Below are positions 1-9,935 of a stretch of 9,935 nt of DNA, in pieces. The stretch comes from a plasmid. The notes beneath the pieces are model-generated. The model worked only from the letters and a program-made list of their open reading frames with translations. It was not told where the DNA came from and made no database searches. The stretch lies in sequence record NZ_CP104353.1; one strand, written 5' to 3'. The number at the start of each line of letters is the position of its first letter. Position 1 is the stretch's first letter. A program made the translations under genes and the position numbers.

Positions 1-888
1 TTGGATAAGAATCAAATTGTTAAATCAAATCAAGTTATAGAAGCTTCCTATCAATTAAGTGCTGTAGAACAGCGTATCGTCTTGGCAGCTATTTCACGTA
101 TTCCGAAGAGCCAGCCTATTACTGATGATGAGTTATACCCTGTAAGCGTTAATGAACTACAGTTATTAGGAGTACATGAAAAAACCGCATACAGAGACTT
201 AAAAGAAGGAATTAATAGACTTTATGAAAGATCTATTAATCTTAGTATTGATGATAAATCTATAAAAATGAGGTGGGTACAAGAGATCCAGTTTTTGGAT
301 AGTCAAAGTATCATTGGTATTCGTTTTTCAAAACCTATCTTGCCCTTCATATCTAATTTAAGTAGAGAATTTACTAAGTATGCTCTATCAGATATTGCTG
401 GGATCAATAGTGGATATGGTATTCGTATTTATGAATTATTGGTGCAATACAGACAAATAGGTAAGCGTGAAATCTCTGTTGAGAACTTACGAAGCATGTT
501 GGAGCTTGGCAAAAAATACCCACTATTTGCAGATTTCAAAAAACGGGTAATTGATACTGCTGTAGACCAAATAAATGAATGCAGCCCATTAAGCGTTTCC
601 TATGAGCAAAAAAAAACTGGTCGTAAAGTCACTCATATTCAGTTTTCATTTAAAGAAAAGTCCAAAAGCATTAATCATCTCAATGAGCCAGAGAAGTTTT
701 ATAAATTAACTGATGCTCAAGTCCATATGTTTGGCAATCAACTTTCTCGTCTACATGAACTATCTCATTTAGCGACTCAAGGAGAAAGTTACGATGATCT
801 AGCTGCAACAATCAAAGAAATGCTAAGAGATCCAATACAACAAAAGCAATTTATTCCTCATCTTAGGAATTTAGGTTTTAAAGGATGA
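1..888 (+). CDS. rep: Rep_3-family plasmid replication initiator (RepAci-type). The start is uncertain: TTG at the window edge, with no in-frame ATG across a putative circular junction.
   Basis: 295-aa ORF whose N-terminus (IVKSNQVIEASYQLSAVEQRIVLAAISRI...) is typical of Rep_3 iteron-binding initiators of Acinetobacter plasmids. Four 21-bp iterons lie immediately upstream if the window is circular (9798-9882). Confidence 0.88.
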   Translation: MDKNQIVKSNQVIEASYQLSAVEQRIVLAAISRIPKSQPITDDELYPVSVNELQLLGVHEKTAYRDLKEGINRLYERSINLSIDDKSIKMRWVQEIQFLDSQSIIGIRFSKPILPFISNLSREFTKYALSDIAGINSGYGIRIYELLVQYRQIGKREISVENLRSMLELGKKYPLFADFKKRVIDTAVDQINECSPLSVSYEQKKTGRKVTHIQFSFKEKSKSINHLNEPEKFYKLTDAQVHMFGNQLSRLHELSHLATQGESYDDLAATIKEMLRDPIQQKQFIPHLRNLGFKG

Positions 889-964
889 TGTTTGATTGTG
901 TATGTAGCGGTTGACTGTTTCTTGATGTATCTTAGTTCACATAATAGACAACCTAAATTACAAC

Positions 965-1522
965 ATGAAATCACTATCTGTTATCGAGCTTTCAAACCTC
1001 TATGGAATGACTCGTCAAGCCGTTTATAAACAAATAAATAAAGGTAATTTAAGTAAGAATAGTGATGGTAAAATTGATCTTTCTGAGGCCATTCGTGTCT
1101 TTGGTGAGCCATCTAAATATGTAAACAGTTTACAGACAACCGAAACACGAAAGTTGTCAGAAGTTCACTTACTTGAACAGCAGGTTCACATGCTTCAAAA
1201 ACAGCTTGAACAAGCTCATGAGCGTGAGAAGTTTCAACGAGATGAATTAAAAGCTAAGAATGATCAGTTACATGTTAAGGATGAACAAATTGAGGCTATG
1301 CAACGCTTATTAGAAGCCCCAAAAACCAATATGACTACGTTTGCCGATCAGAAACCTAGCCAGGATATAGCAACGGATCCTCGACCAGAACCAGAGCCGA
1401 AACATGACGGATTGACTACTCCAGTTGAAATAGAAAATAAGCGGATTCCAGTGCCGGAGCAGGTTGAACTGGAGCAGCCGAAAAGAGGGTGGTTAAGCCG
1501 GTTTTTCTTACCTAATGGGTAA
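965..1522 (+). CDS. HTH DNA-binding protein commonly found downstream of rep in Acinetobacter Rep_3 plasmids
   Basis: 185-aa ORF with an N-terminal HTH-like stretch (LSVIELSNLYGMTRQAVYKQINKG), a central coiled-coil (LEQQVHMLQKQLEQAHEREK) and a Pro/Glu-rich tail. It is syntenic with rep. Confidence 0.65.
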   Translation: MKSLSVIELSNLYGMTRQAVYKQINKGNLSKNSDGKIDLSEAIRVFGEPSKYVNSLQTTETRKLSEVHLLEQQVHMLQKQLEQAHEREKFQRDELKAKNDQLHVKDEQIEAMQRLLEAPKTNMTTFADQKPSQDIATDPRPEPEPKHDGLTTPVEIENKRIPVPEQVELEQPKRGWLSRFFLPNG

Positions 1523-1598
1523 AAGGCTTGTTTAGGTGTACTAATCAAAGTTGTGAAACATTACTCAAATAATAGGCGTGGAACGTGAATAATCATGA

Positions 1599-1637
1599 AA
1601 AAGCCGTTCTAGTGCGCTGAACTCTAGAACGGCTTTG
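1599..1637 (+). terminator. Hairpin terminator after the rep/HTH unit
   Basis: Arm AAAAGCCGTTCTAG (1599-1612) pairs with CTAGAACGGCTTT (1624-1636) around an 11-nt loop and is followed by a T-run. Confidence 0.45.
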
Positions 1638-1672
1638 ACTAAACTATTGATGCTTATAAGAAAATTTCAAGC

Positions 1673-1700
1673 ATTTCGCATAAGGCGTATTATGTTAATT
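1673..1700. other. pdif: pdif site (XerC-6 bp-XerD), C/D orientation
   Basis: ATTTCGCATAA-GGCGTA-TTATGTTAATT: 11-bp XerC arm, 6-bp spacer, 11-bp XerD arm matching the dif/pdif consensus. Confidence 0.85.
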
Positions 1701-1716
1701 TTAGAAAACCTTAAAT

Positions 1717-1992
1717 CTATTTTTTCTTTAATTCCTCTAAAATTTGGTCTTGTATCTTACATAATTTATCTTGGTATTCTAAAAGTAAATCTAATTTCTC
1801 AGACTCTAAATTAATTAATTCGCTTTGTAACTCTATATTGTCAAGCATCAAATTATCGTATTCAAAACTATTCCTGAGTCTTTCTACTATTTCTGCTGTA
1901 ATAGAATTACCAGTAAGACTAGCTGACTGTTCTATTTCTTCTTTTAAATCAAGAGGAAGTCTAAAATTAACCTGGGTATACTTTTTAATCAT
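1717..1992 (-). CDS. Arc/MetJ-type ribbon-helix-helix DNA-binding protein with a C-terminal coiled-coil
   Basis: 91-aa ORF. The N-terminus VNFRLPLDLKEEIEQSASLTGNSITAEIVERL fits a beta-strand plus two helices RHH pattern. The gene is divergent from an 18-bp perfect palindrome. Confidence 0.6.
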   Translation of the reverse strand: MIKKYTQVNFRLPLDLKEEIEQSASLTGNSITAEIVERLRNSFEYDNLMLDNIELQSELINLESEKLDLLLEYQDKLCKIQDQILEELKKK

Positions 1993-2024
1993 GAAATTCT
2001 AGAGTCTAAAATGTCTTGAATAAC

Positions 2025-2066
2025 TATAGCACATTTGCTATATATTATTATAGCAAATGTGCTATA
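2025..2066. promoter_or_regulatory. Perfect 18-bp inverted repeat (6-bp spacer) in a divergent promoter region; candidate operator
   Basis: TATAGCACATTTGCTATA (2025-2042), spacer TATTAT, then TATAGCAAATGTGCTATA (2049-2066), which is the exact reverse complement. It lies between the RHH gene start (1992) and orf132 start (2086). Confidence 0.6.
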
Positions 2067-2085
2067 ACATTTGGAGTAGCTATAT

Positions 2086-2484
2086 ATGTCCAACATTATT
2101 GAATTTAAAAGAAATGAAAGGAGATTTATTAATCAAAAACCTATCAGTCCTGTAGAACTAGTGACAAATATACTCACTCCACAAGAGGTAGATATAAAGT
2201 CTTTGATTAAGGAAACAAAGAAAATTTTAAGAGAAAAAGGCTTAAAATTTCGTACTTCTCATCAAGATTTGGAACACTTAAAAGGAAATAATTTAATATT
2301 ATTTTCCAAAAAGAAATGCGGGTTTATCTTAACCACAAAGTTAGCCTGTAGCACAAATAGCTCATGGGAAATATATTCCATAAGTATAGATAAGACGACG
2401 AAAGCATTAGATATTGTTAATAAAATTATATCTAGGCTAGGAGATAACGTTCATGGCAGCAGCAGAGAAGAAGCAATCAGCTAA
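2086..2484 (+). CDS. Hypothetical protein (132 aa), no recognisable domain
   Basis: Intact ORF that starts 20 bp after the palindrome. Its codon usage is AT-rich, like its neighbours. Confidence 0.5.
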   Translation: MSNIIEFKRNERRFINQKPISPVELVTNILTPQEVDIKSLIKETKKILREKGLKFRTSHQDLEHLKGNNLILFSKKKCGFILTTKLACSTNSSWEIYSISIDKTTKALDIVNKIISRLGDNVHGSSREEAIS

Positions 2485-2671
2485 TCCAGCGATGGAAGCA
2501 GCGAAAGAGGCAGCAAATATTAAAATTGATGGCTTTGAGCAAGGTGTAAATACCTACAATGCGATTGGTTCACAATTATTGCGAGAAAAGCGAGATCCAA
2601 GTGTAATTAATAAAACTCGTGAAAATAGACGAAATATTCGAAAAGCACGAGAAGCTATCAAGAATTTATAG
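2453..2671 (+). CDS. Hypothetical small charged helical protein (72 aa), overlapping orf132 by 32 nt in the +1 frame
   Basis: A good RBS AGGAGA sits 8 nt before ATG 2453. The protein is Lys/Glu/Ala-rich. The overlap runs through the GCAGCAGCAGAGAAGAAG repeat. Confidence 0.45.
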   Translation: MAAAEKKQSANPAMEAAKEAANIKIDGFEQGVNTYNAIGSQLLREKRDPSVINKTRENRRNIRKAREAIKNL

Positions 2672-2716
2672 TAAAAAGCTTCTTAAGATCTAAAATATAA
2701 AAAATTCTCATTAAAC

Positions 2717-2741
2717 AAGCCCTAAGAAATTCTCAGGGCTT
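2717..2741. terminator. Bidirectional terminator-like hairpin between convergent orf72 and orf244
   Basis: AAGCCCT (2717-2723) pairs with AGGGCTT (2735-2741) around an 11-nt loop. T-rich tracts flank it on both strands. Confidence 0.4.
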
Positions 2742-2759
2742 TGTTCATGATAAAAATTA

Positions 2760-3494
2760 TCAGAACATGTCTTCTGCAAAAGTGACTAAAACAAGGCTGT
2801 GAAACTCCAATTCCGTATATACACAAGCATCTAGTCTAAGAAATTTTTCCTTATCAGATGGAAAATTATAAGGTACAGACCAAGGTTTTATTAAACAAGG
2901 ACTTACCTTATCAAAAGTTCCAATAAATTCCTTTTTAGTTAAATCATAAATTCTGATTACACTTAACTTAACAATACTCAAAACCCAAAGCATGTGGCCC
3001 TTATAGGTCTGATAATTATCACAAACCAGCACACCATACTTTTTTAATAAGTATTTGTATATAAATGAGGAAACTCCATTTCGCTGATAATTGGCTAAAA
3101 TCGATGCACCTTTTATTTGTTTACCTGTTATTTTAATAGAGTCATTAATAATTTCGATATCTTTAAATGCGTATCTCGCTATCAAAATTTCTTTCTCTAC
3201 TTCATAAGCTTCTAAGGCTTTATTAGCAGCGTCATATTCATCTAAATATTCATCAGCAACAGCACAAACCCCATCCAATGCATACTCATTATTAAATTCA
3301 CAATAAAAAAGCTCAATACATCCAGAATACTCGCTACCTTCTGAAGCTTGCAATTCTTTTAAACAAAATATTCCACCTTCCCTTTGGTTGTAGAAGTACT
3401 TACTTTCAAGAATATTTTCATAAGAAAAGTAAACAGGTAGTGGAATTAAAGGCTTATTATAATTTTCTTCGAGAAGTATGTGTGGAGGAGTCAA
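2760..3494 (-). CDS. Hypothetical protein (244 aa), apparent TTG start; second gene of a two-gene operon
   Basis: Long intact ORF. An AAGG RBS lies 6 nt before the TTG at 3494, and only 18 nt separate it from the upstream gene's stop. There is no clear domain. A weak GNAT motif-A-like stretch (QRNGVSSFIYKYLLKKYG) is noted but is unconvincing. Confidence 0.55.
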   Translation of the reverse strand: MTPPHILLEENYNKPLIPLPVYFSYENILESKYFYNQREGGIFCLKELQASEGSEYSGCIELFYCEFNNEYALDGVCAVADEYLDEYDAANKALEAYEVEKEILIARYAFKDIEIINDSIKITGKQIKGASILANYQRNGVSSFIYKYLLKKYGVLVCDNYQTYKGHMLWVLSIVKLSVIRIYDLTKKEFIGTFDKVSPCLIKPWSVPYNFPSDKEKFLRLDACVYTELEFHSLVLVTFAEDMF

Positions 3495-3512
3495 TTTAAA
3501 CCTTATATTTCA

Positions 3513-3833
3513 TCAAGCTACTAATGTTGGTTTAATAATATCATTAATTTTAGCTTCTAACATTTTCTCATAAGAAGTTAATTCTGGATACTGTTTGGAT
3601 GCTTTAATAGAAAATCTTAAGCTATTATTTCTTTCTTGAATTTCAGCTACAACTTTCACATCATCCCAATCTTTTTTATTGAGAATAATATCTTTGAAAA
3701 TAAGTATATATTGCTTATTTTTTTCTTTCTCAGAAAAACGTCTTAGTTCAAATGTTTGACGAATATTAGGCATAGTAAAACGCTGAACTAAATCAGTACT
3801 ATTTTTGAGGGTTTGAACAGTTCTAGTGAACAT
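3513..3833 (-). CDS. Hypothetical protein (106 aa); first gene of the operon. The start is trimmed to the internal ATG at 3833.
   Basis: The ORF track extends to 3914, but the first 27 codons are low-complexity translation of AT-rich promoter DNA. ATG 3833 has an AGGTG RBS 5 nt upstream. Confidence 0.5.
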   Translation of the reverse strand: MFTRTVQTLKNSTDLVQRFTMPNIRQTFELRRFSEKEKNKQYILIFKDIILNKKDWDDVKVVAEIQERNNSLRFSIKASKQYPELTSYEKMLEAKINDIIKPTLVA

Positions 3834-3877
3834 TTTGACACCTACATACCTAAAGAAATAAAAGAAAATAAAAATAT

Positions 3878-3911
3878 ATAGTGACAGGTTATAAGACAAA
3901 TATGTCACTAT
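3878..3911. promoter_or_regulatory. Inverted repeat in the divergent promoter region between orf106 and the wHTH gene; candidate operator
   Basis: ATAGTGACA (3878-3886) and TGTCACTAT (3903-3911) are exact reverse complements with a 16-bp spacer. An alternating (TA)n near-palindrome lies at 3937-3965. Confidence 0.4.
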
Positions 3912-3983
3912 CAACTACGTCAAATTTGGCGTACTATATATATATTAATTTATATATATATATGAATAGGGTTTTAAAAAATT

Positions 3984-4394
3984 ATGTTAAATTTTGAATT
4001 AAAAGAAAAGTGGGGCGAAAACTCTCTAATATTAGGGTTCACGCAGATCCCAACTACTCTAATTTATGCACAAAAAGAGCTTGGTCTATCATCTATAGAA
4101 ATTAACATCTTACTTAACTTATTGACCCATTGGTGGAAGAAAGAAGAATTTCCTTATCCATCTCAAGCTGGAATTGCATATCGAATGGGAGTTTCTACTA
4201 GAACTGTACAACGAACATTAGCAGGTCTTGAAACAAAAGGATTCATAACCAGAAACAAAACATCAAGAGATAACAGTAAATACAAAGGAAGGAGTATTTA
4301 TGATTTATCTCCATTAGTAAAAATTCTGGAAGAAAAGGCACCTGATCTAGATATTGTGAAAAAAATTAAAAAAAATAAAAGACTAGCTAAATAG
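3984..4394 (+). CDS. Winged-HTH DNA-binding protein (HTH_36/replication-initiator-N-terminal-like), putative regulator
   Basis: 136-aa ORF whose segment IAYRMGVSTRTVQRTLAGLETKGFI is a typical HTH recognition helix plus wing. It is divergent from the orf106-orf244 operon. Confidence 0.55.
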   Translation: MLNFELKEKWGENSLILGFTQIPTTLIYAQKELGLSSIEINILLNLLTHWWKKEEFPYPSQAGIAYRMGVSTRTVQRTLAGLETKGFITRNKTSRDNSKYKGRSIYDLSPLVKILEEKAPDLDIVKKIKKNKRLAK

Positions 4395-4422
4395 ATTTAA
4401 CATAAAATCTCTTACGATAAGT
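4395..4422. other. pdif: Degenerate pdif-like site, D/C orientation (good XerD arm, poor XerC arm)
   Basis: ATTTAACATAA (4395-4405) is the exact reverse complement of the XerD arm TTATGTTAAAT. A 6-bp spacer AATCTC follows, then TTACGATAAGT, which matches the XerC-arm reverse complement poorly. Its position restores the alternating C/D, D/C, C/D, D/C pattern along the segment. Confidence 0.35.
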
Positions 4423-4423
4423 C

Positions 4424-4452
4424 AAAAAAGGGAGCTTAAAGCTCCCTTTTTC
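4424..4452. terminator. Bidirectional rho-independent terminator between convergent wHTH gene and orf69
   Basis: AAAAAAGGGAGCTT (4424-4437) pairs with AAGCTCCCTTTTTT (4439-4452) around a 1-nt loop as a near-perfect hairpin, with an A-run before it and a T-run after it. Confidence 0.6.
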
Positions 4453-4661
4453 TATCTAACTATATGAATCTTCGGTGATGTTTGTATACCTAATTGCCTG
4501 AAAATATGCCATAGAGCTATGTTGCGATACTGGTACATAGCAATTTGTGAAAAATCAAACCATTGTTCGGATGTGAATTGGTTTATATCAGAAAAAGGTG
4601 GATAACCTCTTAGAGCTAGAAATGCATTAATTTCTTCTACCATTGGATCGAGCTCAAACAT
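4452..4661 (-). CDS. Hypothetical small protein (69 aa)
   Basis: Complete ORF with a weak RBS, ending in the terminator hairpin. An in-frame stop lies just upstream, so it was not truncated by the IS inserted about 52 bp upstream of its start. Confidence 0.35.
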   Translation of the reverse strand: MFELDPMVEEINAFLALRGYPPFSDINQFTSEQWFDFSQIAMYQYRNIALWHIFRQLGIQTSPKIHIVR

Positions 4662-4713
4662 GTTTTAAAACCTAATAAAGAATAAAGTCCAATTGTAAAT
4701 CCCCTTTAAAAGG

Positions 4714-5873
4714 TTAGGACTTACGCATTAACTTGCAAATTCTTACAGAAAGGTAGAGACTAGGATGTAGCCTACAATTATAAGATATTGTAATTAAATG
4801 AATAAAGTATCAAATGGTTTAGATTTTCGTCAGGACTATTGTCAGTTTCTGATCGTGAGCCAAAAAAACTTCACTCAAACCTATTTTGCCGAACATACCA
4901 AAAGCTATACTCATGACCAGATCAACCGCTATTTGAAGTCTGATCACATCAGCTCTGCTGATATTTGGACAGAAGCAAAAGCTCATATTATCCCGAGTAA
5001 TAAAGGCTATTTATTATTTGATGATACTGTTATTGATAAAAACTACTCTACCAAAATTGAAATGGTTCGTCGCCAGTACAGCGGTAATGCAGGCAGAGTC
5101 ATCAAGGGAATAGGTGTTGTTACCTGTGTGTATGTGAATCCAGAAATAGATCAATATTGGATAATTGATAAACGTTTTTATGATATAGATACGGACAATA
5201 AGACTAAATTACAACATGTTAAAGATATGTTTAATGACACGATTGATCATAAAAAGCTGGCATTTACAACACTATTAATGGATTCGTGGTATGCGGTCAA
5301 ATGGCTGATGTTATTGATAGAAAGTCGAGGGATTATTTATTATTGCCCGATTAAAAGTAATAGAAATGTCAATAAAATAAGTAATTTAGAGATTAACTAT
5401 CAACGAGTTGACAGCCTGACATGGACAGATGAACAACATCAGTATGGGCATAGCGTCCATTTACGCGGTTTTCCCAAAGGTCATTCATTACAGGTTTACT
5501 GTTTACCGTTCTCTACCGAACGTACAGATTATATTGTGACGAATGCAACAACGACTCATACACTTGATGAGATCAAAACAATCTGTGCAGTTCGCTGGCG
5601 TATTGAGCAGGTGCATCGGGAGTTAAAACAAACGACAGGTATAGAACGTTGCCAGTGTCGCAAGGGTCAAAGTCAACGAAATCATATAGCTTGTTGTATA
5701 TTGGTGTGGCATCGTTTGATCGCCTTAGCGAGAAAATGGAAAACGACGATTTATAAGTTAAAGCAAGGCTTACTCAGTTCTTATATGCGAGAACAACTCA
5801 GAAAGCCTGATATTGTGATGCTATTTTCTGGGCTATAGTGCATTATTTTTTTACTTTTATGCGTAAGTCCTAA
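4714..5873 (+). mobile_element. Insertion sequence, IS701/IS4-superfamily type, about 1.16 kb
   Basis: 15-bp terminal inverted repeats TTAGGACTTACGCAT (4714-4728) and ATGCGTAAGTCCTAA (5859-5873) flank a single DDE transposase ORF. No clear target-site duplication is visible (flanks AAGG and GGTC). Confidence 0.7.
4798..5838 (+). CDS. tnp: DDE transposase (IS4/IS701-like)
   Basis: 346-aa ORF. Candidate catalytic D residues sit in LLFDDTVIDK and LLMDSWYA. A C-terminal R(3)E(6)K signature (RWRIEQVHRELK) is typical of IS4/IS701 transposases. Confidence 0.85.
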   Translation: MNKVSNGLDFRQDYCQFLIVSQKNFTQTYFAEHTKSYTHDQINRYLKSDHISSADIWTEAKAHIIPSNKGYLLFDDTVIDKNYSTKIEMVRRQYSGNAGRVIKGIGVVTCVYVNPEIDQYWIIDKRFYDIDTDNKTKLQHVKDMFNDTIDHKKLAFTTLLMDSWYAVKWLMLLIESRGIIYYCPIKSNRNVNKISNLEINYQRVDSLTWTDEQHQYGHSVHLRGFPKGHSLQVYCLPFSTERTDYIVTNATTTHTLDEIKTICAVRWRIEQVHRELKQTTGIERCQCRKGQSQRNHIACCILVWHRLIALARKWKTTIYKLKQGLLSSYMREQLRKPDIVMLFSGL

Positions 5874-6081
5874 GGTCACTTTTTTATTGTTCCAAATCCT
5901 CTTTACAGTTTTTTTGTTCTCTACTTTACAATTGACTTGGGAAATTATCCCGATGTTTGTCCGCAGGAAATGGGGATAAAAGTGGGTTATTGGAGCATTG
6001 AGAAATCAGGAAAAATTAAATTTTTGAGTATTTTTTAATCGATTTTGTTGGCTAAAAGTGACAAAGTTGCTTAAAAAGCAT

Positions 6082-6101
6082 CCGACTTGTTTCCAAGTCG
6101 G
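6082..6101 (+). terminator. Terminator-like hairpin in a non-coding relic region
   Basis: CCGACTTG (6082-6089), loop TTTC, CAAGTCGG (6094-6101), followed by CTTTTCACCTATTTTTT. Confidence 0.35.
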
Positions 6102-6169
6102 CTTTTCACCTATTTTTTAGTCATGACTAATTCTATAAATAATTAAAAAATAATAACTTTTCATAATTT

Positions 6170-6197
6170 ATTTCGCATAACGCCCATTATGTTAAAT
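6170..6197. other. pdif: pdif site, C/D orientation
   Basis: ATTTCGCATAA-CGCCCA-TTATGTTAAAT. Confidence 0.85.
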
Positions 6198-6270
6198 TAA
6201 AAGAGTTTTAACTTTTTTAATAAAAGTATTATGCTCTAAGCCCCAAAATTTCCCCTAACATGAATTTGTA

Positions 6271-7098
6271 ATGAAAAAATTTATACTTCCTATATTCAGC
6301 ATTTCTATTCTAGTTTCTCTCAGTGCATGTTCATCTATTAAAACTAAATCTGAAGATAATTTTCATATTTCTTCTCAGCAACATGAAAAAGCTATTAAAA
6401 GCTATTTTGATGAAGCTCAAACACAGGGTGTAATTATTATTAAAGAGGGTAAAAATCTTAGCACCTATGGTAATGCTCTTGCACGAGCAAATAAAGAATA
6501 TGTCCCTGCATCAACATTTAAGATGCTAAATGCTTTAATCGGGCTAGAAAATCATAAAGCAACAACAAATGAGATTTTCAAATGGGATGGTAAAAAAAGA
6601 ACTTATCCTATGTGGGAGAAAGATATGACTTTAGGTGAGGCAATGGCATTGTCAGCAGTTCCAGTATATCAAGAGCTTGCAAGACGGACTGGCCTAGAGC
6701 TAATGCAGAAAGAAGTAAAGCGGGTTAATTTTGGAAATACAAATATTGGAACACAGGTCGATAATTTTTGGTTAGTTGGCCCCCTTAAAATTACACCAGT
6801 ACAAGAAGTTAATTTTGCCGATGACCTTGCACATAACCGATTACCTTTTAAATTAGAAACTCAAGAAGAAGTTAAAAAAATGCTTCTAATTAAAGAAGTA
6901 AATGGTAGTAAGATTTATGCAAAAAGTGGATGGGGAATGGATGTTACTCCACAGGTAGGTTGGTTGACTGGTTGGGTGGAGCAAGCTAATGGAAAAAAAA
7001 TCCCCTTTTCGCTCAACTTAGAAATGAAAGAAGGAATGTCTGGTTCTATTCGTAATGAAATTACTTATAAGTCGCTAGAAAATCTTGGAATCATTTAA
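6271..7098 (+). CDS. blaOXA-24-like: Carbapenem-hydrolysing class D beta-lactamase, OXA-24/40 family
   Basis: 275-aa ORF with a lipoprotein-type signal (LSAC) and class D motifs STFK, SAV, YGN, KSG and WLTGW. The sequence reads as an OXA-24/40-group enzyme. The exact allele (OXA-24/40, -72 and so on) cannot be assigned by eye. Confidence 0.93.
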
Positions 7099-7108
7099 TA
7101 ATTTCTAA

Positions 7109-7136
7109 AATTAACATAATACGCCTTATGCGAAAT
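7109..7136. other. pdif: pdif site, D/C orientation; identical to the pdif at 1673 in inverted orientation
   Basis: AATTAACATAA-TACGCC-TTATGCGAAAT. Its reverse complement is ATTTCGCATAA-GGCGTA-TTATGTTAATT, the same 28 bp as 1673-1700. Confidence 0.85.
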
Positions 7137-7144
7137 TTGCCTGA

Positions 7145-7180
7145 ATAGCCTTTCTCAGAAAGGCTATTACTGATTTTTCA
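7145..7180. terminator. Rho-independent terminator just outside the bla module, overlapping the stop of the mobC-like gene
   Basis: ATAGCCTTT (7145-7153), loop CTCAG, AAAGGCTAT (7159-7167), followed by TACTGATTTTTCA. Confidence 0.5.
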
Positions 7181-7925
7181 CTAAAGCTTTCTTAATTTCG
7201 ATGACTGACAATAACTCTCCGTCTTTTTTCCAGGTATTCAGTCCCTCTAATACCTGATGAAAAAGCTTATTTCTTTCAAAATATCCATTTTTATAACTTT
7301 TAACTTCTTGATATATCTTAGATTTCATTACATCATCATGAAATTTTTTCGTATTCTGAATGCGATTCTTCATCTGTTCAGGCGTATCTTGACTAATATC
7401 AATCCCTAACTCCTTGAAAGCAGCTAACACAGCACCGCCCAACTCAAACTTACGATGATTTTCAGCCGTTCTTTTTTTGCTGGCTTCCTTCTTCTGGATC
7501 TGACTCAAATAAAGCTCTAAATCACTCAACTCAAGCTTATGCGCTTTGAAACTCAGATAACGAGTCGCCATGGTTTTCAAGATATTAAAATCAGCACCAC
7601 TCAACGCATTGTCCCGATAAGCCTCAAACAACTGCACAAACTTCCGTTCATATGCGGTCTGCGGATACTTCACAGACACCTCATCAAACAATAAGTTCAG
7701 CTTCATATGCTCACGATAAGGTTTTAAGGCCTCTTTCACCAAGATCTGTTCAGCTTCAGACAATGACTCAAAGTTAAATTTTTCAATTCGTAGCATTGCA
7801 ATCACATCATTCTGCAAATCAGAACGATCCTTCTTCTGTGAAAGATAGTCTACAAATGCATGTAACTCTGCGATTTGTAAAAGTTGTGCAGGTCTGCCAC
7901 GTTTTTTTGATTTATCCAATGCCAT
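7167..7925 (-). CDS. Putative relaxosome accessory protein (MobC-like by position); function inferred from synteny only
   Basis: 252-aa ORF divergent from the mobA relaxase with oriT between, the same layout as mobC-oriT-mobA in RSF1010. No sequence motif was recognised with confidence. Confidence 0.5.
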   Translation of the reverse strand: MALDKSKKRGRPAQLLQIAELHAFVDYLSQKKDRSDLQNDVIAMLRIEKFNFESLSEAEQILVKEALKPYREHMKLNLLFDEVSVKYPQTAYERKFVQLFEAYRDNALSGADFNILKTMATRYLSFKAHKLELSDLELYLSQIQKKEASKKRTAENHRKFELGGAVLAAFKELGIDISQDTPEQMKNRIQNTKKFHDDVMKSKIYQEVKSYKNGYFERNKLFHQVLEGLNTWKKDGELLSVIEIKKALVKNQ

Positions 7926-7944
7926 CTATCTGCCGCCTAATTTT

Positions 7945-7998
7945 CAGAACTGCTACCGATTGAGTTATGGTTTTACCATAATTCAATCGGGCAGTCTG
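7945..7998. promoter_or_regulatory. Imperfect long inverted repeat 20 bp upstream of the mobC-like start; candidate operator or promoter element
   Basis: CAGAACTGCTACCGATTGAGTTATGG (7945-7970), then TTTTA, then CCATAATTCAATCGGGCAGTCTG (7976-7998). The arms are reverse-complementary with a few indels and mismatches. Confidence 0.4.
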
Positions 7999-8070
7999 AA
8001 AATAATTATTTAAAATAAAAATAAAATTTCTTGAAAAGAATTTATATTTTTATTTTAAATAATTCGCACT

Positions 8071-8110
8071 TGACAGTTTCTCCTAATCGGAGAAACTAGT
8101 ACGCAATGGG
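8071..8110 (+). other. oriT: Putative oriT (MOBQ / RSF1010-like): inverted repeat plus nick-region core
   Basis: GTTTCTCC (8076-8083), loop TAATC, GGAGAAAC (8089-8096), followed by TAGTACGCAATGGGG. The arm sequence CAGTTTCTC...GAGAAAC matches the RSF1010/R1162 oriT inverted repeat as I recall it. It lies between the divergent mob genes. Confidence 0.55.
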
Positions 8111-8228
8111 GCGATTCCCCCTTGACCCCCTTTAACCGGATTATTTCAGCCCTGTAGGCATTACATAATCCGGAGATTTTTATTGCGTTTCACTCCATAA
8201 AAACCAACAACACCCCAAGGAAGTGAAC

Positions 8229-9398
8229 ATGGCCAGTTACCATTTCAGCGTCAAAAGTAAAAATAAAGGCTACGCACTGAGCCACTACCTGTACATTTCC
8301 CGACTCATGCAATACGAAGGCATCCGCAAAAAGAGTGCAGAAGTCCTCGAACATGTCGAACCAGGGCAATGCATGCCCTCCTGGGTCAAAGATCCGGTTG
8401 AATTCTGGCAAGCAGCGGACACCTTTGAACGGGCCAATGCCAAGGCTTACATGGAATACGAAATTGCCCTACCGAATGAATTCACCGTAGAACAACGTAA
8501 AACGCTCGTAGAGACATTTGTTGATAAAACCATAGCAACACACCACTACCCTCATTCCTACGCCATACACAACGTAAAATCACGCCTCAGTGGTGAAGAA
8601 CAACCCCATTGCCACCTCATGTTTTCACTCAAAGCCGATGACGGCATAGAACGAAGTCCGGAACAATACTTCAAACGCTACAACGCTAAAGAACCAAGCA
8701 AAGGCGGAGCAAAGAAAATTCAACTACAGGATGGCCATGCCGACTACACCACTTACCTCCTACATATCCGAAAAGCCTGGGAAAATCACCTGAATGATGC
8801 ATTGGCAGAACATAGCCCAACCGTGACTTACCAGATCGATGGCCAGAAGATCCAAATTAAAAACCAAGTTTCGGCAGACAACTACGAAAAATACAACGAG
8901 ATACACGGCACCCTCTACCTACCAGAACCCAAACTGGGGACAGGCAAACAAAATGAAACCGTGGAATACCTAGCGGAAATCCAGAAAATCAGACAACACA
9001 ATGCCAAAGAACGAGAACTGGAACAGCGCCAACAATACTTTGATCAACAGCATGAATACTACTACAGCTGCTCAAACGAACCCTTCAGTTCTCCGGAAGT
9101 GATGCACTACCTCAATCACCTCATTAAAAAAGCCAGTAACAAAAAAGAACTGGGCCACGATATCGACGAAATTATTCAAACTCAGCAACCAATCCTGCAT
9201 CACGAAAAATGGGATATCGATACCATCAATTTTAATCTCAATAACGCCAGGTTATACCCAGAACCGGATATGGAGTTTAAAGTCCGATCCGTACAACCAA
9301 AACCAGTGATTGAACCAACATCACCGAAGTCAAAACCTGAAATACAACCCTCACAGCCTGAACCGAAACGAAATGATTATGATGGTCCGGGTTTTTAA
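8229..9398 (+). CDS. mobA: MobA relaxase, MOBQ family. The start is placed at ATG 8229; the ORF track begins at GTG 8223.
   Basis: The N-terminal MASYHFSVK carries the catalytic Tyr. The HCHLMFS histidine motif and the GIERSPEQYFKRYNAKEPSKGGAKK block align with RSF1010 MobA (MAIYHL, HCHLMIS, GIERPAAQWFKRYNGKTPEKGGAQK). An AAGGAAG RBS lies 5 nt before the ATG. Confidence 0.9.
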   Translation: MASYHFSVKSKNKGYALSHYLYISRLMQYEGIRKKSAEVLEHVEPGQCMPSWVKDPVEFWQAADTFERANAKAYMEYEIALPNEFTVEQRKTLVETFVDKTIATHHYPHSYAIHNVKSRLSGEEQPHCHLMFSLKADDGIERSPEQYFKRYNAKEPSKGGAKKIQLQDGHADYTTYLLHIRKAWENHLNDALAEHSPTVTYQIDGQKIQIKNQVSADNYEKYNEIHGTLYLPEPKLGTGKQNETVEYLAEIQKIRQHNAKERELEQRQQYFDQQHEYYYSCSNEPFSSPEVMHYLNHLIKKASNKKELGHDIDEIIQTQQPILHHEKWDIDTINFNLNNARLYPEPDMEFKVRSVQPKPVIEPTSPKSKPEIQPSQPEPKRNDYDGPGF

Positions 9399-9435
9399 AA
9401 ATGGATCTAGATCAGAAAGTACAAAGCGAGTGTCT

Positions 9436-9698
9436 ACGAGCGACATCACCAAAATTAGCGCCTCGACTTTCTGAAAAACCGCTTTTTAAGGCTGTATAGC
9501 CTAAAAAAGCATAAATCAGATGCTAAAACTGGCTTCCAGACCGAGCGAAGCGAGCAAAAAGCTTTATGAGCGAAGCGAATTCCGAGTTGCTTTTGCTCTT
9601 GCCTTTACTTTTTCTCAAATTCACGAAGGAATTAACAGAAAAATTGCCCCCTGAATCGAGCGAAAGCGAGATTCAATAGAGTTTGAGCGTAGCGAAAA
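9436..9698. repeat. Cluster of GAGCGAAGCGA-type short direct repeats in the region upstream of the iterons
   Basis: GAGCGAAGCGAGC (9543-9555), GAGCGAAGCGAAT (9568-9580), GAGCGAAAGCGAG (9658-9670), GAGCGTAGCGAAA (9685-9697) and the partial ACGAGCGACATC (9436-9447). An 11-bp inverted pair AAAAATTGCCC (9641-9651) and GGGCAATTTTT (9703-9713) brackets two of the copies. Confidence 0.4.
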
Positions 9699-9797
9699 CC
9701 ACGGGCAATTTTTTCAAACGTCTTTTTTAATTATTTTTATATCTTTTAAATCTTTTCTTTGAGCTGTATCCCTTATGGAGCAAGCCTTTCAAAGTTT

Positions 9798-9891
9798 AAC
9801 TATGACGGATTGACTACTAACTATGACGGATTGACTACTAACTATGACGGATTGACTACTTAACTATGACGGATTGACTACTAACTATGAC
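9798..9891 (+). repeat. Rep_3-type iterons: four 21-bp direct repeats plus a partial fifth, forming the putative oriV
   Basis: AACTATGACGGATTGACTACT occurs at 9798-9818, 9819-9839, 9840-9860 (followed by one extra T) and 9862-9882, with a partial copy AACTATGAC at 9883-9891. An AT-rich tract lies at 9719-9760. Confidence 0.85.
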
Positions 9892-9908
9892 AAGTATATA
9901 GTTGTCAT
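9887..9908. promoter_or_regulatory. Short inverted repeat overlapping the last partial iteron; candidate Rep autoregulatory operator
   Basis: ATGACAA (9887-9893), then GTATATAG, then TTGTCAT (9902-9908). The arms resemble the iteron half ATGAC. Confidence 0.35.
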
Positions 9909-9935
9909 ATATAAAAGAAAATCAATGGTTTTATT

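Follow-up and report, generated by a model that had tools for sequence, protein, structure and literature searches.

Plasmid architecture

The window, by which we mean the whole 9,935-bp stretch of DNA analysed, is a complete circular Acinetobacter plasmid of the GR12 Rep_3/OrfX, MOBQ kind that carries blaOXA-72. Profile matches identify RepM (275 bits against NF038290) and OrfX (212 bits against NF038291), and the plasmid therefore has the Acinetobacter Rep_3 gene with adjacent orfX by which hosts of dif modules are recognised; Acinetobacter is the source of 719 of the 722 plasmid hits. In type it is a pMMCU1-type plasmid with an added IS701-family element, that is, pAba10042a-type. The element, missing from pMMCU1, is flanked by a 4-bp target duplication (AGGT at 4711-4714 and 5873-5876).

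The plasmid is assembled from dif modules (Table 1). Its backbone, with repM, orfX and mobA, is a 'C module', the XerC arms of the end pdif sites facing the backbone, and the 5.4-kb cargo block is made up of three dif modules. As the window is the entire circle, a flip of the 5.4-kb segment and a flip of the 4.5-kb backbone are one and the same event.

Table 1. Features of the plasmid, in window coordinates
Feature	Position	Strand	Remarks
Backbone C module, second part	1-1672	+	repM and orfX
repM	1-888	+	backbone
orfX, 'plasmid replication DNA-binding protein'	965-1522	+	backbone
Left backbone/cargo junction pdif, C/D	1673-1700	+	XerC arm ATTTCGCATAA, spacer GGCGTA, XerD arm TTATGTTAATT
D-type dif module (2.7 kb)	1701-4394		six ORFs
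Extension beside left XerD arm	1701-1714	+	TTAGAAAACCTTAA; first 7 nt same as partner site
Arc-family repressor	1717-1992	-	in module 1701-4394
Four ORFs without family matches	2086-2484, 2453-2671, 2760-3494, 3513-3833	+, +, -, -	in module 1701-4394
HTH_36/DnaD_N protein	3984-4394	+	in module 1701-4394
Fourth pdif, D/C	4395-4422	-	ACTTATCGTAA-GAGATT-TTATGTTAAAT
C-type dif module, split by insertion sequence	4423-6169
Small ORF	4452-4661	-	in module 4423-6169
IS701-family insertion sequence	4715-5872	+	terminal inverted repeats TAGGACTTACGCAT
IS701-family transposase	4798-5838	+	inside IS 4715-5872
Internal pdif, C/D, left end of oxa24 module	6170-6197	+	ATTTCGCATAA-CGCCCA-TTATGTTAAAT
oxa24 D-type dif module	6198-7108	+	carries blaOXA-72
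blaOXA-72	6271-7098	+	in oxa24 module
Extension beside right XerD arm	7095-7108	-	TTAGAAATTATTAA on minus strand; overlaps blaOXA-72 stop codon
Right backbone/cargo junction pdif, D/C	7109-7136	-	same 28 bp as 1673-1700
Backbone C module, first part	7137-9935		circular continuation at 1-1672
Terminator-like hairpin	7144-7168		in backbone, just outside right pdif
252-aa ORF	7167-7925	-	backbone
MobA/MobL relaxase	8223-9398	+	backbone
Iterons	9796-9891		backbone

Four pdif sites, two of them identical and inverted

The first-pass annotation had described the cargo as bracketed by identical inverted pdif sites, and direct reading together with a pattern search bears this out: the two junction sites match with 0 mismatches on opposite strands, and across 200 shuffles no match to their pattern is expected by chance. 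Their identity extends, as had also been noted, 7 bp inward (TTAGAAA at 1701-1707, the reverse complement of 7102-7108) to give 35 bp in all, ending at 1708/7101 on the inside and at 1672/7137 on the outside; a repeat finder reports an inverted repeat of 44 nt at 93% around the junction sites. The XerD arm points toward the 5.4-kb segment at both. The internal site beside the oxa24 module differs in spacer and in XerD arm, again in agreement with the earlier description, which had, however, overlooked a fourth, degenerate site at 4395-4422 and so left the count of sites incomplete.

Judged by the pdif consensus (XerC and XerD arms of 11 bp each around a 6-bp spacer), three sites show 0-1 mismatches, and the fourth combines an exact XerD arm with a diverged XerC arm. 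Its spacer also occurs in well-formed pdif sites of related plasmids, and the alternation of orientations found in dif-module plasmids (C/D at 1673, D/C at 4395, C/D at 6170, D/C at 7109) would break without it. Because its XerC arm has GTAA instead of the ATAA expected next to the spacer (a rule from PMC11705084), this site is probably weak or inactive. A fifth candidate at 3965-3992 was rejected, its would-be XerC arm AATAGGGTTTT departing from the degenerate pattern at 6 positions and its spacer reading AAAAAA; we treat this locus, with an exact XerD arm TTATGTTAAAT at 3982-3992 that overlaps the start codon of the HTH gene, as an orphan half-site and not as a pdif.

XerC/XerD binding and cleavage have been demonstrated for most plasmid Xer sites (PMC11705084) and for sites modelled on pMMCU1 (PMC7399989). 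The spacers of the junction pair are identical, within the limit of at most one spacer mismatch for a recombination-active inverted pair.

Both orientations occur among natural plasmids

The junction pair had been proposed as a substrate for inversion, and plasmids of the same content have indeed been sequenced in both orientations, with breakpoints within the 35-bp repeat. The window, pMMCU1 and pAba9201a share one orientation, and the cargo is flipped in pDA33098-9-2 and in pMMCU2, which is inverted relative to pMMCU1. At 8,771 bp, pDA33098-9-2 lacks the insertion sequence and matches the window at 99.6-100% identity with 1673-7136 inverted, the alignments overlapping solely within 1673-1707 and 7094-7136. 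An independent pair with different cargo on this backbone behaves alike: pAP10253-1 and pIEC338SCOX (both 10,498 bp) differ solely by the same inversion, and their alignments overlap by 36-37 bp at each of the two GGCGTA sites. Junction searches of PLSDB for the same cargo returned six records with the window's arrangement and two with the inverted one. A 2023 paper in which Xer and pdif are not mentioned (0 occurrences; PMC10773864) reports this very plasmid in a forward (pAba79f) and a reverse (pAba78r) form. Comparison of related plasmids, which the first-pass annotation had suggested as a check, also places the start and stop of the variable region exactly at the two junction sites. The inverted junction pair and the cargo flip are genuine and already described behaviour of such plasmids.

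The sites might instead be only scars left when modules were joined in the past, with both database orientations built independently and not by inversion; relatives clearly swap modules singly, and separate building of the arrangements would be possible in principle. We consider this very unlikely, however, as the isoform pairs are 99.4-100% identical across the entire cargo and backbone and differ in orientation alone, forward and reverse forms occur among Mexican isolates with the same plasmid, and one inversion is a far more parsimonious account than three modules being assembled separately into an identical internal order.

Less probable still, to the point of being negligible, is that the inverted forms are assembly artefacts arising from the inverted repeat. 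The repeat does disturb short-read assemblies, as seen in pAba70f, a 5,464-bp 'plasmid' that is in fact a contig stopping exactly at the repeat. Reported plasmid sizes of 10,062 and 10,012 equal 9,935 + 127 and + 77 (k-mer overlap). A repeat of 35 bp is nevertheless below the read length and the apparent k-mers, an assembler would not mis-orient the segment, and each form is represented by several complete records obtained independently, in different laboratories and different years. A reading of pAba70f as an excised circle was rejected, because inverted sites cannot excise and the record is linear and ends where repeat identity ends; it is best read as an assembly-graph unitig, and its ending exactly at the repeat is an indirect hint that both orientations may coexist in one culture.

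Modules are exchanged singly, and no dedicated invertase is encoded

The first-pass annotation had further suggested that the whole block might move as a unit. The comparison does not support this: the block is three dif modules, and relatives exchange modules singly. What relatives have in common with the window is just the oxa24 module, which one of them carries at the opposite end of the accessory region. This module, with its XerD arms and flanks, is present on at least four backbones, and so appears as the same module in different contexts, whereas PLSDB has the 2.7-kb module at 1701-4394 in just 9 records, each time on the window's backbone.

None of the plasmid's ORFs contains a recombinase domain, the sole DDE protein being the IS701-family transposase, and the plasmid has no dedicated invertase of the kind that defines a Hin/Gin/fim-type programmed switch. 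A promoter-switch reading found no support: consensus scans of the junctions gave one terminator-like hairpin, no convincing outward-facing promoter at either junction, and promoter-like matches no commoner than in shuffled controls. Both cargo ends are gene 3' ends (the Arc stop at 1717 and the blaOXA-72 stop at 7098) and one backbone end bears the hairpin, so the flip would be expected to be roughly neutral for gene expression. Nor does the plasmid have the single site with ~180 bp of accessory sequence that marks the cer/psi type; it has four sites with flank conservation of ~14 nt.

A conserved extension beside the XerD arm

The 7-bp extension had been taken as special to the pair, but it is part of a class-wide motif of ~14 nt, TTAGRAAWWYTWAA, which adjoins almost every pdif site with an XerD arm ending in AATT and a spacer ending in GTA and is absent beside sites whose XerD arm ends in AAAT. 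Conservation beside the pdif core reaches only about 14 nt. Of the first-pass interpretation, then, the inversion substrate is supported, as are the limits of the variable region that it proposed to check, and the block as a unit, the pair-specific extension and the site count that missed one pdif are not.

Published experiments tie the AATT/GTA class of pdif sites to inversion and cointegration. It is possible, if on balance doubtful, that the ~14-nt element is functional and defines recombination-proficient pdif sites, in which case it may, for example, act as an extended XerD contact or be bound by an accessory factor from plasmid or host. Stop-codon coverage as the cause of the conservation was set aside, since the reverse complement of the extension, read by hand, has stops in two of three frames only. 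No earlier account of sequence conserved past the XerD arm turned up in PMC9947245, PMC13141974, PMC6449649, PMC12907356, bioRxiv 2022.12.17.520857 or full-text searches, although one may exist. A functional TTAGRAAWWYTWAA would contradict current statements that pdif sites are without accessory sequences, and the class-wide motif is the sole part of this analysis that might add something new.

Discussion

Our findings suggest, with a probability that we put at roughly 85%, that in this GR12 dif-module plasmid host XerC and XerD recombine the inverted GGCGTA pair and thereby flip the 5.4-kb cargo relative to the 4.5-kb backbone. The two recombinases would bind both junction sites, whose arms and non-palindromic 6-bp spacer are identical and oppositely oriented, bring them together and carry out strand exchange inside the spacer. 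With sites in inverted orientation, the product would be an inversion of cargo relative to backbone and not an excision. The internal sites, with spacers GAGATT and CGCCCA, have no compatible partner on the plasmid, so that the cargo flip would be the sole intramolecular Xer event expected and the cargo would not be lost. We infer that the flip in this plasmid is both Xer-dependent and reversible. Reversible inversions are known at pXerC/D pairs with identical spacers (PMC9947245), and work on other Acinetobacter plasmids has shown that such sites no longer recombine once xerC is deleted and that their central regions must be closely related (PMC11705084); for such plasmids the literature also records both isoforms within clonal cultures. 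In an E. coli assay that scored deletion, not inversion, intramolecular recombination between plasmid Xer sites was inefficient (NAR 2025 study, PMC11705084).

Four different backbones place the crossover in the core, as the XerD arm and flank stay constant with the oxa24 module and the XerC arm and spacer vary with the backbone, giving hybrid sites. Between the two junction sites themselves the crossover is resolved no finer than 35 bp because they are identical, and this 35-bp identity makes the sequence alone compatible with homologous recombination too. The flips could thus be RecA-dependent exchanges at the inverted repeat (35 bp, or 44 bp at 93%) with no Xer role; the repeat is perfect across 35 bp, close to the shortest length that RecA-mediated exchange needs, and breakpoints inside it are not resolvable. 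Such an origin is nonetheless unlikely, since the pAP10253-1 and pIEC338SCOX sites share just 32 bp (the 28-bp site plus TTAG) and underwent the same inversion, the exchange point across backbones lies inside the core and yields hybrid XerC-arm/XerD-arm sites, and in other Acinetobacter plasmids xerC deletion abolishes recombination and spacer identity, not homology length, is decisive.

Recombination by XerC and XerD at the junction pair would explain why the internationally spread blaOXA-24/72 plasmid stands in databases in two orientations, and why short-read assemblies fragment it into supposed 'plasmids', the 5,464-bp pAba70f among them. The junction sites would mark the only intramolecular Xer event open to the plasmid, a flip without loss of cargo, and they also mark the points at which cargo modules are exchanged between relatives. 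These results leave the current understanding of dif-module plasmids unchanged; in practice they help with correct annotation and with the reading of plasmid 'variants' in outbreak tracking.

XerD cleavage is under FtsK control at most sites (PMC11705084). Cre-lox and FLP-FRT resemble the junction pair in using a tyrosine recombinase and two arms around an asymmetric spacer, with orientation setting inversion or excision, but the window pair relies on two different host-encoded recombinases, XerC and XerD, and the element encodes none. Like the window sites, cer and psi are XerC/XerD core sites on plasmids. In cer and psi, some 180 bp of accessory sequence ensures that only direct repeats on the same molecule recombine; the window sites are without such a region, several are present per plasmid, and pdif inversion and cointegration occur.

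Comparable too are the pairs C2/D2 and C7/D7 of pAb242_25 and pAb825_36 (PMC9947245, 2023; PMC5790767, 2018), opposed pXerC/D sites with identical spacers, as in the window, which reversibly invert a resistance region so that both forms coexist. Those plasmids are larger and multi-replicon, with a blaOXA-58/TnaphA6 region and the spacer GGTGTA, and their arms differ, which makes hybrid sites visible, whereas the window arms are identical. A further such case is that of pMSHR_A204 and other r3-T5 Rep_3/OrfX plasmids, with inversion between pdif sites 1 and 6 (PMC13141974, 2026). As in the window, the backbone C module of pMSHR_A204 lies between inverted pdif sites with the XerD arm TTATGTTAATT and identical or near-identical spacers, recombination inverts the backbone against the entire set of dif modules, and the internal sites have other spacers. 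The window differs in its Rep_3 subgroup, GR12, and in its spacer, GGCGTA as against CGTGTA/GGTGTA, and the evidence is comparative for the window and PCR with amplicon sequencing for pMSHR_A204. Finally, pMMCU1, pMMCU2 and pMMA2, together with pAba10042a, pAba78r and pAba79f, are essentially the window plasmid at 99-100% identity, and XerC/XerD-like sites around blaOXA-24 were reportedly described by Merino et al. in 2010.

Plasmid identity and module layout

The sequence is a complete circular plasmid that best matches Acinetobacter plasmids in the 8.8-11.4-kb range; pMMCU1 and CP033132 (8,771-8,773 bp) correspond to it over their full length, without one insertion sequence. A 2022 paper assigned these plasmids to replicon group GR12, and the backbone genes that complete the set listed in the table are a MobA/MobL relaxase gene and a 252-aa ORF. 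A 2023 paper on Mexican isolates reported the same plasmid as pAba10042a, of 10,062 bp, together with 10,012-bp SPAdes contigs, and located an IS701 element upstream of blaOXA-72, at a distance of 433 bp (PMC10773864). Because these sizes equal 9,935 + 127 and 9,935 + 77, and 127 and 77 are SPAdes k-mer sizes, we infer a true size of 9,935 bp.

The first-pass annotation described the 5.4-kb cargo as enclosed by identical inverted XerC/XerD sites (pdif), and it was accurate: the sites at 1673-1700 (+) and 7109-7136 (-) both read ATTTCGCATAA-GGCGTA-TTATGTTAATT, a further 7 bp (TTAGAAA) are identical beyond the XerD arm, whose side points into the segment at both ends, and the identity ends at 1672/7137 and 1708/7101 for a total of 35 bp, a match of which none is expected by chance. 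The internal pdif at 6170-6197 carries, as described, the spacer CGCCCA and the XerD arm TTATGTTAAAT. A looser scan revealed a fourth, previously overlooked pdif at 4395-4422 (-), ACTTATCGTAA-GAGATT-TTATGTTAAAT, which we accept because the XerD arm matches exactly, related plasmids have the same spacer in well-formed pdif sites, and a 48%-identical homologue of the adjoining HTH gene in a distant Acinetobacter plasmid is directly followed by a D/C pdif. With this site the order becomes C/D, D/C, C/D, D/C, and the alternating orientations yield the standard dif-module layout. Its XerC arm reads GTAA rather than ATAA beside the spacer, a position reported to be important for binding and cutting (PMC11705084), so the site may be inactive and represent a fossil module boundary.

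Features of the plasmid and its dif modules
Feature	Position	Strand	Remarks
RepM	1-888		matches Acinetobacter RepM model
OrfX	965-1522		ORF after RepM; matches 'plasmid replication DNA-binding protein' model
D module	1701-4394
HTH_36/DnaD_N protein	3984-4394	+	136 aa
C module	4423-6169
IS701-family element	4715-5872		in C module; target duplication 4 bp, AGGT; missing from pMMCU1
oxa24 D module	6198-7108
blaOXA-72	6271-7098		275-aa ORF; labelled OXA-72 in identical records
Backbone C module	7137-9935 + 1-1672
Iterons	9796-9891		four, 21-22 bp

Several further features accompany these modules. An exact copy of the XerD-arm 11-mer TTATGTTAAAT at 3982-3992 (+) overlaps the HTH start codon (ATG) and lacks any recognisable XerC arm on its upstream side. 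Because this copy is oriented towards the XerD arm at 4395-4405, the HTH gene may at one time have formed a small D module of its own. Enterobacterial plasmids of 2.3-5 kb encode proteins with 40-53% identity to the HTH_36/DnaD_N protein, and a 2,311-bp Klebsiella plasmid has the homologue as its sole annotated CDS. The protein may therefore initiate replication in small plasmids, and a second replicon, possibly a relic, may be present in the cargo; beside the gene, at about 3935-3965, lies an AT-rich (TA)n tract. A perfect 18-bp inverted repeat, TATAGCACATTTGCTATA / TATAGCAAATGTGCTATA (2025-2042 and 2049-2066), occupies the divergent intergenic region between an Arc-family gene and a 132-aa ORF and is probably the operator of the Arc repressor. 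The related plasmid pAba9201a lacks 911 bp within the IS701-family element (window 4839-5749), a gap due either to deletion inside the element or to collapse during assembly. The interval between the right pdif and the 252-aa ORF holds, just beyond the pdif, a hairpin at 7144-7168 (an 11-bp stem followed by a T-run) that probably shields the backbone from transcription of the cargo, whichever way the cargo is turned.

Inversion at the GGCGTA pair

Comparative evidence indicates that the pair inverts, as had been proposed: plasmids of the same content are known in both orientations, flipped at these two sites. Outside the insertion sequence, which it lacks, pDA33098-9-2 (8,771 bp) is 99.6-100% identical to the window over the aligned pieces, with 1673-7136 reversed; its forward and reverse alignments overlap only at 1673-1707 and 7094-7136, and the inner flanks are swapped at both junction sites. 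The same difference in orientation separates pMMCU2 from pMMCU1, and the nine PLSDB records that contain module 1701-4394 comprise six in the window arrangement, two inverted and one contig. Two A. pittii plasmids from Brazil, pAP10253-1 and pIEC338SCOX, carry the backbone sites of the window with other cargo; both are 10,498 bp and 99.9-100% identical, their sole difference is this inversion, and their alignments overlap by 36-37 bp at the two GGCGTA sites, which makes them a second, independent example. The Mexican study also presented a forward form, pAba79f, and a reverse form, pAba78r, as an inversion of the four backbone genes, and its text makes no mention of Xer or pdif (PMC10773864).

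Indirect evidence that both orientations coexisted in one culture comes from pAba70f (NZ_OR436922.1), a linear 5,464-bp record deposited as a 'complete' plasmid without any Rep_3 gene, which matches window 1673-7136 exactly, with one mismatch. The record most likely represents a unitig of the assembly graph with the inverted pair at its ends, as a contig that ends exactly at the limit of repeat identity is the outcome of a de Bruijn graph when reads support both junction configurations.

The likely driver of the flip is XerC/XerD site-specific recombination; judged by sequence alone, homologous recombination across the 35-bp repeat is an unlikely but possible route. On four backbones, the oxa24 module retains a constant TTATGTTAATT + TTAGAAATTATTAA, whereas the adjoining XerC arm and spacer vary by backbone (ATTTCGCATAA-GGCGTA, ATTTCGTATAA-GGCGTA, ATTTCGGATAA-GCCGTA and ATTTCGGATAA-GGCTTA), a pattern that puts the exchange within the core; in pA52-OXA-72, the two backbone-flanking sites share the spacer GGCTTA and have different XerC arms. 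Xer dependence for this plasmid is inferred. Plasmid sites are substrates for binding and cleavage by XerC and XerD in A. baumannii, deletion of xerC abolishes recombination between them, their central regions must be closely related for it to occur, and cleavage by XerD usually calls for the FtsK gamma domain (PMC11705084); sites modelled on pMMCU1 also showed cooperative binding and cleavage (PMC7399989). Given the asymmetry of the GGCGTA spacer and the opposite orientation of the sites, XerC/XerD recombination would invert the cargo, not excise it, and since the internal spacers (GAGATT, CGCCCA) have no partner in the plasmid, this flip would be the only intramolecular Xer event expected.

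Exchange of modules among related plasmids

The suggestion that the whole block moves as a unit found no support, as relatives with the same backbone exchange modules and share only the oxa24 module. Their shared backbone (98-100% identity) ends exactly at the two GGCGTA sites, but other modules lie between them, and shared sequence is also bounded at the internal pdif at 6170. The oxa24 module sits on the orfX side in pSU8507_OXA-72 and on the mob side in pAP10253-1, and in PLSDB module 1701-4394 is confined to this backbone. The GGCGTA spacer is rare, found in 1/124 non-redundant AATT-class sites from species-representative genomes (loci L008-L087) versus 54 for GGTGTA and 21 for CGTGTA, so the GR12 backbone may recombine little with dif-module plasmids sharing its host. 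In pMMCU2, an 'ISNCY family' element (about 1041-2474) sits ~6 bp beyond the XerC arm of the pdif at the backbone junction, in keeping with the report that ISAjo2/IS1202-family elements target pdif sites (PMC10132070).

A conserved motif beside the XerD arm

The 7-bp extension of identity, put forward as a special trait of the pair, proved to be a class-wide feature. Searching one genome per species (GTDB) with the pattern TTCGYATAA-N6-TTATGTTAATT yielded >120 stretches, nearly all from Acinetobacter, and 130 sites were kept as non-redundant on the distal flank. In about 90% of these AATT-arm sites (loci L008-L087) the XerD arm is followed by a ~14-nt motif, TTAGRAAWWYTWAA, with the composition T 88%, T 92%, A 96%, G 86%, R, A 69%, A 78%, W, W, Y (C 56%), T 90%, W, A 75%, A 76%, and flank information falls to zero from +19 onward. 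The window copies lie at 1701-1714 and 7095-7108. The motif is absent from 68 AAAT-arm sites of the same loci, and exact TTAG follows 97/131 AATT-class versus 0/69 AAAT-class sites, in a survey that makes no correction for phylogeny and is biased by its ascertainment of loci through AATT sites. Out of a maximum of 11, AATT-arm sites with a spacer ending in GTA had a motif score of 9.5, compared with 3.4 in the AAAT class and a background of 4.2. Judged from 7-mer frequencies, a random pair of AATT-class sites has about a 14% chance of agreeing over the first seven flank bases, so that within the class the extra identity is unremarkable.

The motif is apparently undescribed in the accessible literature on pdif sites, and two studies of plasmid Xer sites state that they found no accessory sequences (PMC11705084, PMC7399989); it is the sole lead here with some novelty. 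The accompanying division of spacers, NNNGTA in the AATT class versus ..CCA or GAGATT in the AAAT class, agrees with the two pdif clusters noted by Mindlin et al. The inverted pair is real and its reading as an inversion substrate correct, and such inversion is already described for dif-module plasmids and for this lineage: PCR and sequencing have documented it between oppositely oriented, identical-spacer sites in blaOXA-58 plasmids (PMC9947245) and in r3-T5 plasmids (PMC13141974).
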